Shown here: in pieces, positions 1 to 2,837 of the stretch | Numbering within the stretch: the first letter of the stretch is position 1 | Layout: the number at the start of each line of letters is the position of its first letter | From: a virus | Taxonomy: Duplodnaviria; Heunggongvirae; Uroviricota; Caudoviricetes | Length of the DNA stretch: 2,837 nucleotides | Virus record (IMG/VR): IMGVR_UViG_2541047795_000005 | Reading direction: 5' to 3' (one strand) | Position numbers and translations under genes: made by a program | Notes under the pieces: generated by a model | Told to the model about the DNA's origin: nothing | What the model saw: the letters and a program-made list of their open reading frames with translations, nothing else | Database searches by the model: none

Positions 1-186
1 TCTGCAAGCGCGGCGGCTGCTTCTGCCACTGCATCAGCTAACAGTCAAAAAGCAGCAAAAACCAGTGAAACCAACGCAAAGGTGAGCGAAACAGCGGCTG
101 CGAACTCAGCGAAAGCATCGGCAGCAAGCCAGACGGCAGCTAAAGCAAGCGAAGATGCAGCCAGAGAGTACGCAAGCCAGGCTGCG
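1..186 (+). repeat. Ala/Ser-rich low-complexity coding repeats (fibre shaft region) inside the tail-fibre CDS
   Basis: Translation SASAAAASATASANSQKAAKTSETNAKVSETAAANSAKASAASQTAAKASEDAAREYASQAA shows reiterated A-A-K/S-A-S units built from GCN/AGC/AAA codons. GC is locally high (hand count about 53-58% on 60-nt blocks). The approximate end of the repeat is judged by eye. Confidence 0.55.
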
Positions 187-1506
187 GAGCCGTATAAATA
201 TGTCTTACAGCCGCTGCCTGATGTGTGGATACCATTTAACGATTCGCTGGATATGATTACGGGCTTTTCGCCATCATATAAAAAAATTGTTATTGGTGAC
301 GATGAAATAACGATGCCTGGCGACAAGATTGTTAAGTTTAAACGTGCATCGAAAGCAACCTATATTAACAAATCTGGTGTGCTGACAGAGGCTGCCATTG
401 ACGAGCCACGATTTGAACGTGATGGCCTGCTTATTGAGGGGCAAAGAACTAATCTTCTGCTTAATTCAACAAATCCATCTAAATGGAATAAGTCAGGCAA
501 TCTGGAACTCACAGAAATATCCACGGATTCTTTTAATTTTACTTATGGGAGATTTACTGTAAAAGATACTCTTATTGGTCAGACAAGTGCTATTAATATC
601 GTAACGGTTTCTGGCAGTAAAGGGTTTGATGTCACAGGTGATGAAAAATATGTGACCATTTCATGCCGTGTAAGAAGTGATGTTGAAAATGTAAGGTGTC
701 GTTTAAGATTTGAACACCATGATGGTTATACTTACACTTTTTTGGGAGATGCTTACCTCAATTTATCAACACTTGTAATTGATAAAGCTGGTACTGCTGC
801 AGACCGTATTATTGCAAAGGCTGTAAAAGATGAGGTTACTGGTTGGATTTTCTATCAGGCTACAATTAATGCACTAGATACAGAGAGCATGATTGGTGCG
901 ATGGTTCAATACGCTCCTGTAAAAGGTTCAGGCACAGCATCTGGAGACTATCTGGATATCGCAACTCCACAAGTGGAAGGTGGATCAAGTGCTTCGTCAT
1001 TTATTGTAACTGATATAACTGCAAGCACTCGCGCAAGCGATATGGTGACAGTCCCAATCAAGAATAACCTTTATAATCTTCCTTTTACGGTTCTTTGTGA
1101 GGTACATAAGAACTGGTATAAAACGCCAAATGCAGCGCCACGTGTTTTTGATACCGGCGGTCATCAAACCGGAGCGGCTATTATTCTTGGCTTCGGTCGT
1201 TCAACAGATTACGACGGATTTCCTTATTGCGATATTGGAGGAGCTAACAGACGGGTAAACGAAAACGCATCGCTTGAAAAAATGGTTATGGGGATGCGTG
1301 TAAAGTCAGAGCAGTCTACGTGCTCAGTAAGTAACGGGCATATATCCAGCGAAACAAAAACCACATGGTCCTGTATTCAGAACACCGCAATTATCCGTAT
1401 TGGAGGCCAGACTACAGCCGGGTTACGTCATTTATTTGGTCATGTCAGGAATTTCAGAATATGGCACAAGGCATTGACTGATGCTCAGGTGGGGGAGTCA
1501 ATCTAA
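1..1506 (+). CDS. Phage tail-fibre / receptor-binding protein, 5'-partial (gene starts upstream of the window), with a C-terminal LamG/concanavalin A-like lectin-type signature
   Basis: Frame 1 is open from nt 1 with no stop until TAA at 1504-1506, so the GTG at 82 given by the ORF track is internal, not the true start. The translation begins SASAAAASATASANSQKAAK..., Ala/Ser-rich low-complexity repeats typical of fibre shafts. The C-terminus ...GLRHLFGHVRNFRIWHKALTDAQVGESI (nt 1420-1503) resembles the terminal strand motif of LamG-type jelly-roll domains. The segment ...GVLTEAAIDEPRFERDGLLIEGQRTNLL... resembles phage structural proteins. The gene is followed by a translationally coupled downstream gene. 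Confidence 0.8.
   Translation, partial: SASAAAASATASANSQKAAKTSETNAKVSETAAANSAKASAASQTAAKASEDAAREYASQAAEPYKYVLQPLPDVWIPFNDSLDMITGFSPSYKKIVIGDDEITMPGDKIVKFKRASKATYINKSGVLTEAAIDEPRFERDGLLIEGQRTNLLLNSTNPSKWNKSGNLELTEISTDSFNFTYGRFTVKDTLIGQTSAINIVTVSGSKGFDVTGDEKYVTISCRVRSDVENVRCRLRFEHHDGYTYTFLGDAYLNLSTLVIDKAGTAADRIIAKAVKDEVTGWIFYQATINALDTESMIGAMVQYAPVKGSGTASGDYLDIATPQVEGGSSASSFIVTDITASTRASDMVTVPIKNNLYNLPFTVLCEVHKNWYKTPNAAPRVFDTGGHQTGAAIILGFGRSTDYDGFPYCDIGGANRRVNENASLEKMVMGMRVKSEQSTCSVSNGHISSETKTTWSCIQNTAIIRIGGQTTAGLRHLFGHVRNFRIWHKALTDAQVGESI
1491..1497 (+). promoter_or_regulatory. Shine-Dalgarno-like ribosome-binding site for the CDS starting at 1506
   Basis: GGGGGAG lies 8 nt upstream of ATG 1506-1508, and the ATG overlaps the upstream TAA stop (TAATG), which suggests translational coupling. 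Confidence 0.55.
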
Positions 1507-1787
1507 TGAAAGATTTAACACTCAAATTTGAAGACAGGGCCGACTTTTCGGCCTTTATGGAGAGTATTGGCTATTATGATGACGAGTCGATGCAGGATGA
1601 TATTCTTATCGACGTGATAGGTAACGTGTACAAAGAAACCGGAGAACTGACTGAAGATGGCGAACCGGTATGTGTTAAGGAAGACGGATATTTTGTAAAC
1701 GTGCGCATCATTAATGATTCGCAAATATCGTCATTATTCGATGAATACGTGGTTGCTGTTGAGCATCAACTTCGTGGCTGGATGTGA
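1506..1787 (+). CDS. Small strongly acidic hypothetical protein (93 aa), function unknown
   Basis: ATG at 1506 overlaps the stop of the upstream fibre gene, with an SD-like GGGGGAG upstream, and the ORF ends at TGA 1785-1787. By hand count it has 22 Asp/Glu against 7 Lys/Arg in 93 residues. I recognise no domain. It sits between two fibre-like genes on the same strand. Confidence 0.6.
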   Translation: MKDLTLKFEDRADFSAFMESIGYYDDESMQDDILIDVIGNVYKETGELTEDGEPVCVKEDGYFVNVRIINDSQISSLFDEYVVAVEHQLRGWM

Positions 1788-1790
1788 GGA
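1786..1790 (+). promoter_or_regulatory. Shine-Dalgarno site for the CDS starting at 1797
   Basis: GAGGA (within tGAGGAAGaaaaATG) with a 6-nt spacer to ATG 1797; it overlaps the TGA stop of the upstream gene. Confidence 0.6.
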
Positions 1791-1796
1791 AGAAAA

Positions 1797-2330
1797 ATGG
1801 CTACATCGACAGTAATTCCTGATGACATCAAAACGCTAAAATCCGACGTTAGCAAATTAAAAAACGATCAAGGAAGCTACGCAACAAAATCTTATGTAGA
1901 CAATAAAGAAGAAATCGTTGGTGATTGGTATGTATCCTGTTATCAGAAGATATTGCCAACTACTGGAGCTATATTTAGGGGTAAGCTGCGCTCGACTAAC
2001 AAGACGGCTGGAATTGAAAACGCTTATAGTGAAATATACACCAGAAAAAGTATTGACAGTCCTGAAAACGCAATGGCGCGCCTTATCATAAATAATAACG
2101 GGAAAAGCATTTTCTGGGACTTTAGCGATCTTTATGGCGGAACGATGATTTTTCCCGGTGGCAGTGGTTACCTCAAAATGGGTAACTGTCTCATGTCATA
2201 TGGTAAGCGGGGAAGTAACGCGCTTATTAAATTTGATTATACCGACTCATTACAGATCAAATATGCCAATCATGGGTCGACCATGACATTAAACACGCAA
2301 GGAACCGCGTATGCTGGTGTGTCTGCGTAA
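1797..2330 (+). CDS. Tail-fibre-like protein (177 aa); probably the N-terminal body of a fibre gene whose C-terminal chaperone domain is now the separate ORF 2391-2837 (possible pseudogene fragment)
   Basis: Good SD and ATG start. The N-terminal segment DIKTLKSDVSKLKNDQGSYATKSYVDNK looks like a short coiled-coil or fibre motif. The ORF is AT-rich (about 33-37% GC on hand-counted blocks). It ends at TAA 2328-2330, and the same frame reopens immediately and runs into the S74 domain. From memory only, the pair loosely resembles short fibre-remnant ORFs annotated in cryptic E. coli prophages, but I cannot verify that and assign no symbol. Confidence 0.6.
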   Translation: MATSTVIPDDIKTLKSDVSKLKNDQGSYATKSYVDNKEEIVGDWYVSCYQKILPTTGAIFRGKLRSTNKTAGIENAYSEIYTRKSIDSPENAMARLIINNNGKSIFWDFSDLYGGTMIFPGGSGYLKMGNCLMSYGKRGSNALIKFDYTDSLQIKYANHGSTMTLNTQGTAYAGVSA

Positions 2331-2378
2331 TTATGGGGAAATTCCAGCCGTCCTGTTGTTTATGAAGTCGGTGTTGAT

Positions 2379-2383
2379 GGTGG
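2379..2383 (+). promoter_or_regulatory. Weak candidate Shine-Dalgarno (GGTGG) for ATG 2391
   Basis: GGTGG lies 7 nt upstream of ATG 2391. The same bases are in-frame codons (GVDGG) of the open spacer, so this may be coding sequence rather than a dedicated RBS. Confidence 0.3.
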
Positions 2384-2390
2384 CGCTTAT

Positions 2391-2837
2391 ATGTTCTATG
2401 CGCAGAAAAATACCGATAACACCTATATGTTAAGCGTTAATGGTGCATGTCATGCCACCGCATTTAACCAGCATTCCGACCGGGATCTGAAAGACAACAT
2501 TCAGGTGATCGATAATGCAACCGACCGCATCCGTAAAATGAACGGCTATACATACACGCTTAAAGAAAACGGTATGCCCTATGCTGGTGTCATTGCACAG
2601 GAAGCTCTGGAAGCAATCCCAGAAGTTGTAGGTTCCGCAATGAAATATCAGGACGGTGCGAGCGGATCGGAAGGTGAAGAAGGTGAACGTTATTACACAG
2701 TAGATTATTCTGGTGTTACTGGCTTGCTTGTTCAGGTAGCCAGAGAGTCAGACGACAGAATAACAGCACTGGAAGAAGAAAACGCAGAATTAAGACAAAG
2801 ATTATCTGTAATTGAGGCGGCGCTTGCGTCTAAATAA
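2391..2837 (+). CDS. S74-type intramolecular chaperone (self-cleaving) domain protein, 148 aa; likely the detached C-terminal part of the upstream fibre gene
   Basis: The translation contains the hallmark layout of the C-terminal intramolecular chaperone domain of phage fibres and endosialidases. It has HS-DRDLKDNI with Ser and Lys five residues apart (the Ser-Lys dyad), then GYTYTLKENG, then AGVIAQEALEAIPEVV, then YYTVDYSGVTGLLVQVAR, then a terminal coiled coil ITALEEENAELRQRLSVIEAAL. It is in the same frame as ORF 1797-2330. The first in-frame start after the TAA is ATG 2391, and the stop is TAA 2835-2837. Confidence 0.7.
   Translation: MFYAQKNTDNTYMLSVNGACHATAFNQHSDRDLKDNIQVIDNATDRIRKMNGYTYTLKENGMPYAGVIAQEALEAIPEVVGSAMKYQDGASGSEGEEGERYYTVDYSGVTGLLVQVARESDDRITALEEENAELRQRLSVIEAALASK
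2478..2834 (+). other. Peptidase S74 / intramolecular chaperone domain with predicted autocleavage site between Ser (2475-2477) and Asp (2478-2480)
   Basis: Motif match by eye to the S-D-x-x-x-K catalytic arrangement and the conserved GxIAQE and coiled-coil blocks of this family. Domain boundaries are approximate. Confidence 0.6.

Follow-up and report, generated by a model that had tools for sequence, protein, structure and literature searches.

A family of small acidic phage proteins encoded directly behind lectin-type tail fibres, as candidate partners of the fibre's distal module

The DNA analysed in this study, a stretch of 2,837 nt referred to here as the window, contains three consecutive genes on one strand: the 3' part of a gene for a side tail fibre (fibre A), a small gene for a strongly acidic protein, and a gene for a second tail fibre (fibre B) (Table 1). 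The original prediction had described the small open reading frame as encoding 93 residues, 22 of them acidic and 7 basic, with an ATG overlapping the fibre stop codon as TAATG. Our reading of the sequence and of the computed translation (D+E = 22, K+R = 7) reproduced each of these features exactly. The junction is consistent with translational coupling of fibre A and the small gene.

Table 1. Genes and signals located in the window.
Feature	Position (nt)	Strand	Description
Fibre A, side tail fibre, 3' part	1-1506	+	Ala-rich shaft, then ~400-aa lectin-like distal unit
Shine-Dalgarno-like GGGGGAG for the small gene	1491-1497	+	Purine-rich; 8 nt before ATG, within the fibre A coding sequence
TAATG stop/start overlap, fibre A/small gene	1504-1508	+	TAA 1504-1506, ATG 1506-1508
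Acidic small gene, PHROG 1361	1506-1787	+	93 aa, 10.7 kDa, pI 4.05
TGA stop of the small gene	1785-1787	+	Read from the sequence
GAGGA Shine-Dalgarno for fibre B	1786-1790	+	Overlaps the TGA of the small gene; 6 nt before ATG 1797
Fibre B, 346-aa-type tail fibre	1797-2837	+	PHROG 4563 matches both halves

The small open reading frame is a real gene and not a chance one, as indicated by frame-specific selection together with its homologues, its confident predicted fold and the acidity of the whole family. Across 37 distinct DNA alleles, drawn from 82 lambdoid copies (81 related loci and the window), dN/dS was 0.19 in the annotated frame versus 1.48 and 0.84 in the other two frames, and the gene is thus under purifying selection. 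No comparable support was found for the overlapping antisense and off-frame ORFs of this region.

At the profile level, the window protein aligned to phrog_1361 (E = 2.5e-46; residues 1-93 on profile positions 1-92 of 92) and also matched phrog_18574 (E = 5.2e-08), which is the best-scoring profile for the distant members of the family; both PHROGs are labelled 'unknown function'. The protein had no match in Pfam (E up to 1), NCBIfam or PADLOC and no informative match in the PDB, and seven distant family members scanned with Pfam likewise gave none. These searches agree with the original prediction, which had recognised no motif in the protein, and the clear homology to a known unrelated family that it had named as contrary evidence was not found in Pfam, NCBIfam, PADLOC or the PHROGs. 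Homologue searches retrieved mostly near-identical E. coli prophage proteins, and few loci were obtained when IMG/VR was scanned with queries of the T1- and T5-like type. A profile built from the distant members recovered 633 clusters (90% identity), mainly of distant relatives.

The acidity is a trait of the family, with a pI of 4.05-4.70 in all 60 unique members examined and net charges from -5 to -21. The AF2 model of the small protein (mean pLDDT 88.8) is a confident, compact alpha+beta fold with the predicted order beta1 (2-8), alpha1 (11-20), alpha2 (27-32), a long beta2-beta3 hairpin (33-48, 54-68) and alpha3 (75-81), followed by a C-terminal tail that is modelled at lower confidence. 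Three motifs are conserved, D.IG (36-39), GY[FH]VN.R (60-67) and P.R.W near the C-terminus, and the last of these is also conserved in loci without fibre B. Both the fold and the motifs are retained at 25-40% identity in prophages of beta- and gammaproteobacteria that have no fibre B.

The upstream protein, fibre A, matched PHROG 1419 'tail protein' (E = 2.5e-252) and the NCBIfam family NF048003 GTA_spike_fiber (E = 8.8e-16, better than the family cut-off), with a weak Pfam Laminin_G_3 match at residues 418-470; its homologue in Tritos is annotated as a lambda Stf homologue and placed after gene J. Its ~400-aa distal unit (residues ~75-474 of the 82-1503 ORF) is related to the RcGTA head-spike fibre, with a LamG/ConA-like strand motif at its end. 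The last ~40 aa of fibre A (IRIGGQ..G.RHLFGHVRNFRIWHKALTDAQ) are conserved among coliphage and enterobacterial alleles, and distant members retain only a looser terminal motif. In an alignment of 32 non-redundant loci in which the upstream fibre unit was paired with the small protein (alignment A2), the ~400-aa unit was homologous throughout; P35, G41 and N50 were invariant, and F12, R14, A15, S16, R36, L42, L43, E45, T49, G367 and L391 were at least 90% conserved. According to Pfam, the chaperone domain Peptidase_S74 (PF13884) is absent from both fibre A and the small protein and occurs in the window only in fibre B. The original prediction had also noted that no classical Tfa-type gene was visible, which our Pfam and PHROG scans showed to be correct for the window.

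The position of the small gene was compared across 115 loci. At 113 of them an upstream ORF of 150 aa or more ended close by, with the start of the small gene no more than 4 nt ahead of that stop and no more than 46 nt behind it, and the two exceptions were located at contig ends. The junctions comprised 1-nt overlaps (64 loci), 4-nt ATGA overlaps (40), one abutting pair and gaps of 7-46 nt (8); the small gene thus overlapped or abutted the fibre stop at 105 loci. At every locus whose sequence was read, the upstream tail protein ended in a homologous ~400-aa lectin-like unit of the GTA-spike-fibre/LamG type. The pairing was found in lambdoid phages, T1-like swan01, T5-like IrisVonRoten, FGS017, IME178 and AKFV33, rV5-like CarlMeissner, Dhillonvirus, Queuovirinae, P2-like and environmental contigs, and prophages of Cupriavidus, Paenalcaligenes and Buttiauxella, whereas the small gene was not found away from a lectin-type tail protein among the 115 loci. 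The co-occurrence with this fibre type that the original prediction had proposed to examine therefore held at 113 of 115 loci, which come from widely differing lineages of phages, and the gene without a nearby fibre, which would have told against a fibre-related role, was not encountered in this set. In rV5 itself, an allele of the S74 type is present in its place.

In the phage database, the C-terminal 130 aa of fibre A matched 204 records and the small protein matched 186, and the two sets divide by host and genus in nearly the same way, suggesting that the fibre module and the small protein occur near 1:1. At least some of the difference between these counts reflects search sensitivity, as the family member in AKFV33 was missed by the query. 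In one T5-like phage the fibre domain has 92% nucleotide identity to that of the window, but the small protein is only 41% identical; the small protein thus does not co-vary with the receptor-binding allele. This missing co-variation fits binding to a conserved face of the fibre and equally fits carriage as a conserved recombination linker.

The downstream side of the small gene is more variable. The 9-nt spacing between the small gene and fibre B is identical in nearly all lambdoid loci, and fibre B has a conserved N-terminus (MATSTVIPDDIKTLKSDVSKLK) and a C-terminal Peptidase_S74 intramolecular chaperone domain (about nt 2475-2630; PF13884, E = 2.5e-14). In the window this gene is broken by an in-frame TAA at 2328-2330; the codon is CAA in 32 of 32 related loci, and an intact 346-aa gene is present in Tritos. 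A second fibre is encoded there in most coliphage loci. Fibre B followed the small gene at 88 of the 115 loci by a motif test, plus two near-variants, while 23 loci without it carried baseplate, lysis-like or membrane genes at this position, or a terminator and then an unrelated gene. As the downstream neighbour varies, the upstream protein is the invariant partner. In P2-like loci, a 139-aa gene that is Tfa-like on sequence inspection lies behind the second fibre, and the small protein is encoded behind the lectin-type one. Each fibre in the loci examined would thus seem to have its own helper, namely the S74 domain for fibre B and the Tfa-like gene for the second fibre of P2-like loci.

These comparisons lead us to propose, at about even confidence, that the small protein is dedicated to the upstream side tail fibre, with the lectin-type distal module as its partner. 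Its most likely role would be that of an assembly factor or a retained subunit of this module; its family would then be new, although of a functional kind that is already known. A fibre helper or subunit is more likely than an anti-restriction factor, because the small gene always lies directly behind a lectin-tipped fibre gene. The small gene is part of the late tail operon, and because it begins at or within the stop codon region of the fibre gene, its product is likely made in step with the fibre. In the proposed mechanism, the small protein would bind the lectin-like beta-sandwich on a face that is conserved and does not contact the receptor, with the beta-hairpin motif GY[FH]VN.R and the C-terminal P-x-R-x-W tail as candidate contact elements. 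It may then help the fibre tip, which is served by no S74 intramolecular chaperone and by none of the Tfa type, to fold or stay soluble, and it may remain attached there, as a cap or a small accessory subunit. The original prediction had suggested a fibre assembly or attachment factor; the association with the lectin-type fibre at 113 of 115 loci strongly supports such a role, but attachment of the downstream fibre cannot be the whole function, as 23 of the loci have no fibre B.

By analogy, this role would parallel those of the Tfa proteins of lambda, Mu and P2 and of T4 gp57A, to which the small protein family is unrelated. Tfa-type proteins (lambda Tfa, Mu U/U', P2 G; Caudo_TAP) are needed for the C-terminal receptor-binding tip of their fibres, and in Mu they stay bound to it (cited in PMC11990801). 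Like them, the small gene lies directly 3' of a fibre gene in a late operon, and the TAATG of the window and the overlaps or abutments at 105 of 115 loci suggest that it is co-expressed with that gene. In contrast, the small protein is half their size (93 aa versus ~175-194 aa), shows no Pfam or PHROG cross-match to Tfa/Caudo_TAP and no tail-chaperone PHROG among its matches, and its putative partner is a lectin-like beta-sandwich unit rather than a Tfa-dependent tip. T4 gp57A is small, acidic and separately encoded, and is an all-helical general chaperone of several T4 fibres that is encoded away from them. The small protein resembles it in size, acidity, separate gene and putative helper role; however, it is modelled as alpha+beta with a long beta-hairpin, its gene is tied to one fibre type, and there is no homology between the two.

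The lateral fibre locus Gp22-Gp23-Gp24 of IrisVonRoten (Bas32, BASEL) is a direct orthologous arrangement. Here, a proximal fibre of 796 aa with a 'galectin-like' C-terminal domain is followed by a 92-aa protein, 39% identical to that of the window, and by a T-shaped distal fibre with an N-terminus resembling that of fibre B, although this distal fibre has 574 aa and two receptor-binding domains, compared with the 346-aa S74 fibre of the window. Gp23 bears the annotation 'tail fiber protein' with no stated role, and the BASEL authors modelled the fibre complex from Gp22 and Gp24 only (PMC11990801). The small protein is not characterised in the papers examined on DT57C LtfA/LtfB, BASEL, rV5 and AKFV33 proteomics, or RcGTA; the virion proteomics of AKFV33 covered only four large gel bands (PMC3326045). 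In Alteromonas phages, a small fibre-adjacent protein has been proposed to cap the receptor-binding tips of new fibres as a transient chaperone (Gonzalez-Serrano et al. 2023, as cited in PMC11990801), and the gene position of the small protein is similar to this description. The small protein is conserved while receptor-binding regions vary, and a cap seated on the variable binding site is therefore disfavoured. As for RcGTA, the domain shared with its capsular polysaccharide-binding fibre Rcc01080 (NF048003; PMC7296036, PMC5026251) is present in fibre A, the neighbour, and not in the small protein. In RcGTA the fibre consists of one chain mounted on a pentameric base and is reported beside capsule genes with no small partner described (PMC5026251), and the spike-fibre domain may therefore not need this protein.

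The lectin-like tips of side and lateral fibres act as O-antigen and glycan sensors of many coliphages and are prime targets for host-range engineering, and the small protein may be required to fold or mount this type of fibre. If this is true, the small gene would have to accompany receptor-binding modules of this type whenever they are swapped or expressed, whether in lambda-like, T1-, T5- or rV5-like backbones or in tailocins, annotation pipelines should drop the label 'hypothetical' for its product, and the family would represent a third, non-homologous solution to fibre-tip assembly beside Tfa-type and S74 intramolecular chaperones. As it is compact, confidently modelled and widespread, the family offers an easy experimental target.

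An alternative hypothesis is that the small protein is the joint of a branched fibre, located at the distal end of fibre A and docking the N-terminal peptide of fibre B (MATSTVIPDDIKTLK...), so that each side fibre would bear two receptor-binding proteins. The small gene lies exactly between the two fibre genes, with a 9-12 nt spacer, in coliphage siphovirus lineages, the arrangement recurs at 88-90 of the 115 loci, and the ~22-aa N-terminus of fibre B is conserved while the remainder is exchanged (alleles of 346, 234, 224, 574 and other lengths). Moreover, attachment of IrisVonRoten Gp24 to the proximal fibre Gp22 has been proposed (PMC11990801), and branched LtfA-LtfB fibres are established in DT57C (PMC4728585, PMC10713586). 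We nevertheless regard this hypothesis as unlikely, as the small protein and a lectin-type upstream protein persist without a fibre B of the conserved N-terminus at 23 of the 115 loci (e.g., L122, L084, L124 and L125), including PhiR40_1, rV5-like phages, P2-like and Mu-like loci and prophages of Cupriavidus and Paenalcaligenes; IME178, with a different N-terminus on its downstream fibre, is counted among them. Binding of fibre B by the C-terminal tail as its sole role was dropped, given the conservation of P.R.W at such loci. In addition, the long tail fibres of DT57C are described as LtfA and LtfB only and those of AnnaHegner are numbered consecutively as Gp9 and Gp10 in the cited papers, and from this published composition and numbering both branched fibres appear to lack the small gene. 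Docking of fibre B could still be a further function, beside a main one that involves fibre A.

A hypothesis combining both contacts, to which we assign a rather small probability, is that of a two-faced, virion-resident subunit of the fibre tip, the folded core of which would clamp the conserved face of the lectin-like unit of fibre A. Its acidic surface and P-x-R-x-W tail would then provide either a socket into which exchangeable distal fibres insert their conserved N-terminal peptide, or an acidic glycan mimic masking the lectin site until release. The socket variant, if true, would amount to a universal plug-and-socket for modular receptor-binding proteins in siphoviruses and myoviruses.

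It is doubtful, and in our view improbable, that the small gene serves mainly as a conserved recombination linker with a minor protein function, in which it and the conserved ends flanking it, namely ~35 aa at the C-terminus of fibre A and ~22 aa at the N-terminus of fibre B, would be homology anchors for swaps of receptor-binding cassettes. Mosaic boundaries do fall at the block edges (the match of FGS017 to the window ends at nt 1481, which is 25 nt short of the fibre stop), and where the small gene is at least 94% identical, the alleles upstream of it combine freely with those downstream. However, a pure DNA anchor would yield neither the frame-specific dN/dS of 0.19 nor the retention of fold and motifs at 25-40% identity in prophages without fibre B. 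The linker and protein roles are not mutually exclusive.

Least probable is an accessory passenger (moron) functionally unrelated to the fibre, such as the DNA-mimic anti-restriction factor raised in the original prediction or another host-takeover protein: the strong negative charge (22 acidic versus 7 basic residues, pI 4.05) and the lack of a recognisable family would suit it, but the fixed position, which places the gene always within the late tail-fibre operon and probably not under early or leading-region expression, the empty PADLOC, Pfam and NCBIfam searches, and the lack of any homology or fold similarity to known mimics (Ocr, ArdA and similar) disfavour it. We also considered a programmed frameshift, in which a -1 slip on the G5 run (1491-1495) would join the small protein to fibre A. 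This is unlikely, since alleles differ in the frame of one gene relative to the other, with 1-nt or 4-nt overlaps, abutment or gaps of up to 46 nt.

The 93-aa acidic product of the gene that follows the upstream fibre gene (hereafter the small protein) may well be a functional partner of that fibre (fibre A), a reading in which we place about even confidence. It would be a dedicated partner of the lectin-type module in which fibre A ends, most likely as an assembly factor, and may stay bound to it. Observed in its support are a place in the late operon, a start that overlaps or abuts the fibre gene, purifying selection, and a strict pairing with a single type of fibre tip in phages of unrelated backbone. 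We infer that the small protein physically binds the lectin-type unit through its beta-hairpin motif and C-terminal tail, and that it exerts a chaperone effect on the fibre A tip.

The window covers the 3' portion of a side-tail-fibre operon of lambdoid type. In its closest match, Escherichia phage Tritos (95.7% identity over 80% of the window at megablast stringency), J is succeeded by an Stf-like fibre of 790 aa, a hypothetical protein of 93 aa and a tail fibre of 346 aa, with genes for integrase and excisionase after them. The 93-aa frame was recovered as originally described, with 22 acidic (D + E) against 7 basic (K + R) residues, and its translation gives a computed pI of 4.05 and a mass of 10.7 kDa. 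The proposed stop/start overlap is likewise present, the fibre TAA occupying 1504-1506 and the ATG 1506-1508, with a plausible Shine-Dalgarno sequence ahead of it. No terminator-like site was found on the plus strand between the three window genes, and promoter-like matches in the window were at chance level.

Coordinates of features in the window, the small protein and the collected loci
Feature	Location	Strand	Basis or remark
Fibre A gene, 3' part	window 1-1506	+	
Shine-Dalgarno of small gene, plausible	window 1491-1497	+	GGGGGAG in sequence
Small gene	window 1506-1787	+	
Fibre B gene	window 1797-2837	+	
NF048003 region	window 82-1503, especially residues 144-345 of the 1-1503 translation		NCBIfam match
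beta1	small protein 2-8		AF2 prediction
alpha1	small protein 11-20		AF2 prediction
alpha2	small protein 27-32		AF2 prediction
beta2-beta3 hairpin	small protein 33-48, 54-68		AF2 prediction
alpha3	small protein 75-81		AF2 prediction
Protein of about 95-116 aa after small gene	L122 4289-4576; L109-L111 ~6306-6600; L125 5312-5602; L124 5324-5674		
AKFV33 ORF137 and ORF136 region	L123 2048-4669		fibre A and small-protein orthologues, respectively

The small gene is not a chance reading frame, as several lines of evidence show. Among 82 lambdoid copies (81 related loci and the window, representing 37 DNA alleles), the annotated frame had a dN/dS of 0.19, and the two alternative frames had values of 1.48 and 0.84. 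Homologues were found in 186 phage records (tblastn); when 1.84 billion cluster representatives were scanned exhaustively with HMMER, 51 matched, nearly all of 85-125 aa, and a profile built from distant members matched 633 clusters at 90% identity. Moreover, all 60 distinct family members collected were acidic, with pI values of 4.05-4.70 and net charges of -5 to -21.

No family was found for the small protein in Pfam, NCBIfam or PADLOC, nor for seven distant members in Pfam. It belongs to PHROG 1361 (E 2.5e-46) and the distant members fall in PHROG 18574, both labelled 'unknown function'. The AF2 model, based on a 23-sequence alignment, is confident (mean pLDDT 88.8, pTM 0.75), with a long beta2-beta3 hairpin and a C-terminal tail of lower confidence. 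Conserved across the family are L6, F8, a D.IG motif (G39 invariant), GY[FH]VN.R (N65 invariant, and R67 invariant in distant members) and a C-terminal P.R.W.

In all, 127 loci were collected: 80 E. coli prophage contigs from IMG/VR, 28 viral contigs, environmental and other, retrieved by querying with distant members, five closer viral contigs of T5- and T1-like type, annotated phages of six coliphage lineages and three bacterial prophages. Automatic scoring was possible for 115. In 113 of these, an upstream ORF of at least 150 aa stopped at most 46 nt before or 4 nt past the small-gene start (TAATG-type overlaps of 1 nt in 64, ATGA overlaps of 4 nt in 40, abutment in one and a gap of 7-46 nt in eight); both non-conforming loci lay at contig ends. 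The N-terminal parts of the upstream proteins were wholly different between loci, ranging over Stf-like shafts, T5 Ltf-like N-termini, a 1479-aa rV5-type fibre, P2 H-like fibres and free-standing proteins of 395-420 aa, while a C-terminal unit of about 400 aa was common to them. Across 32 non-redundant aligned pairs, P35, G41 and N50 of this unit were invariant, and F12, R14, A15, S16, R36, L42, L43, E45, T49, G367 and L391 were at least 90% conserved. The check on co-occurrence suggested with the original prediction thus came out positive: no copy of the small gene without an adjacent lectin-type tail protein was found among the loci collected.

In the phage database, the last 130 aa of fibre A matched 204 records compared to 186 for the small protein, and the two sets broke down by genus and by host in nearly the same way. 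AKFV33 was on the fibre A list alone although its orf136 clearly belongs to the family (GYYINIRI ... RKWA), and at least part of the excess is therefore due to search sensitivity. Records labelled 'Campylobacter phage' or 'Listeria phage' (e.g., MG065654, OR848352) contained sequences that were identical or nearly so to coliphage rV5-like or T5-like genes and are probably mislabelled or contaminant. In several prophage copies (L020, L050, L062, L067 and L075), the small gene is intact but fibre A, upstream of it, is truncated or frameshifted, as would be expected if the fibre module decays in resident prophages.

The distal unit of fibre A matched NCBIfam NF048003 'GTA_spike_fiber' above the cut-off (E 8.8e-16). 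This match links the tips of coliphage side and lateral fibres to Rcc01080, the head-spike fibre with which the Rhodobacter gene transfer agent (RcGTA) binds capsular polysaccharide (PMC7296036, PMC5026251). The last strands showed a weak match to Laminin_G_3 (ConA-like), equally faint in a Buttiauxella homologue (Pfam), and the BASEL authors call the orthologous IrisVonRoten Gp22 a proximal fibre whose C-terminal domain protrudes and is 'galectin-like' (PMC11990801). A repeat-like pattern within the unit (F.RAS.AT near residue 87 and TRASD near residue 313 of the 82-1503 ORF) suggests two putative tandem beta-sandwich domains.

As a rule, the tip of a fibre depends on a helper that is encoded in cis, and each fibre in the loci examined has one, which is why a chaperone role is proposed here. 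The downstream tail fibre (fibre B) has its own S74 intramolecular chaperone; in P2-like loci, a second fibre is followed by a 139-aa gene that is Tfa-like by reading of its sequence, not by Tfa profiles; and the lectin-type fibre, with neither S74 nor a Tfa-like helper, is followed by the small protein.

The small protein was at least 94% identical across lambdoid prophages, in which the fibre A distal unit formed at least 10 clusters at below 80% identity and several fibre B alleles assorted independently. Conversely, in a T5-like Salmonella phage the fibre domain showed 92% nucleotide identity to window 208-1481, but the small protein was only 41% identical. Such T5-like phages (e.g., PP429239, at that same identity) have only this segment in common with the window, that is, the distal unit minus its last 8 codons, ending 25 nt ahead of the fibre stop; the sharp boundaries near 208 and 1481 indicate recent horizontal cassette exchange between temperate lambdoid and virulent T5-like phages. 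Being constant across fibre alleles and divergent beside a nearly unchanged fibre domain, the small protein shows no co-adaptation with those parts of fibre A that vary and presumably bind glycans. This speaks against a cap over the variable binding site; any contacted surface must be conserved, and binding to the conserved sandwich core would fit.

Fibre B was the downstream neighbour in 88 loci (90 counting two near-variants), and in the other 23 the downstream gene varied: a membrane-like protein of 95-116 aa in PhiR40_1 and in Paenalcaligenes and Cupriavidus prophages, a terminator and then an unrelated gene in rV5-like phages, a baseplate-like gene in one locus (L085), and a fibre with a different N-terminus in IME178 and P2-like loci. 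As the P.R.W tail is kept in loci without fibre B as well, the upstream lectin-type unit is the sole invariant partner of the small gene. For the coliphage loci, a role as adaptor by which fibre B docks on fibre A has its appeal, and it agrees with the BASEL model, in which Gp24 attaches to Gp22; however, with fibre B absent from 23 loci, this cannot be the general function of the family, and we consider it unlikely, possibly an added role. The originally proposed assembly or attachment factor gains support from the co-occurrence with the fibre type, but its extension to fibre B docking does not hold as a general function.

Production as a frameshift fusion with fibre A is also unlikely: a -1 slip at the G5 run at 1491-1495, 10 nt ahead of the fibre stop, would read into the small-protein frame with no intervening stop (...AQVG-GVNL-MKDL...), but the two genes do not keep a fixed frame relative to each other from allele to allele. 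The small-gene block also serves as a stretch of homology at which cassettes are exchanged; that the gene persists mainly as a recombination linker is nevertheless improbable, since the frame-specific dN/dS and conservation at 25-40% identity in distant prophages show selection on the protein itself. The DNA-mimic or passenger (moron) role also raised originally, to which the charge alone points, is very improbable given a late-operon position fixed in at least eight lineages, the lack of a match in the searches and a generic fold.

As a partner of fibre A, the small protein probably works, by analogy, like Tfa of lambda, Mu and P2 or T4 gp57A, but outside those families, as it has no Tfa profile match, is half the size of Tfa, and is modelled as alpha+beta rather than helical like gp57A. 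Its direct orthologue in a studied phage, IrisVonRoten Gp23, is annotated 'tail fiber protein' and left out of the published fibre model (PMC11990801). For AKFV33, whose orf136 is another orthologue, virion proteomics covered four large gel bands only and is uninformative on a 10-kDa protein (PMC3326045). In that gel, ORF137 ran at 95.8 kDa against a predicted 83.1 kDa; the excess of 12.7 kDa, close to the 10.2 kDa of ORF136, may be ordinary SDS-PAGE error. The family is already in databases as 'hypothetical'; what is new is the rule that, in many phage groups, it goes with a single architecture of the fibre tip, together with the functional hypothesis. If true, it would add a new, non-homologous family to the fibre assembly and accessory proteins, a useful, testable lead for receptor-binding-protein engineering that is unlikely to surprise a specialist.

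The fibre B frame in the window is interrupted by TAA at 2328-2330, which leaves an N-terminal part of 177 aa and a C-terminal part that contains the S74 domain. Because all 32 related loci aligning gap-free across the site have CAA (Gln) there and the 346-aa Tritos gene is intact, the codon is read as a C-to-T nonsense mutation, reflecting prophage decay or sequencing error. The first ~22 residues of fibre B (M-x-T-x-T-x-I-P-x-D-I..LK; window 1797-1862) are conserved and the remainder is exchanged (98 to 581 aa), giving alleles of 346, 234, 224, 574 and other lengths. This peptide, common to lambdoid, T1-like, T5-like, Dhillonvirus and Queuovirinae loci (L002, L003, L118-L120, L123), is probably the peptide by which fibre B docks and attaches to the proximal fibre. 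The putative membrane-like protein of about 95-116 aa, conserved after the small gene in several loci without fibre B, recurs in enterobacterial, Paenalcaligenes and Cupriavidus prophages, with hydrophobic N-terminal segments in four loci (MNRTH.EHL.VAL.IQGFF... / MDITSILHALCAVAVQVLAG...).
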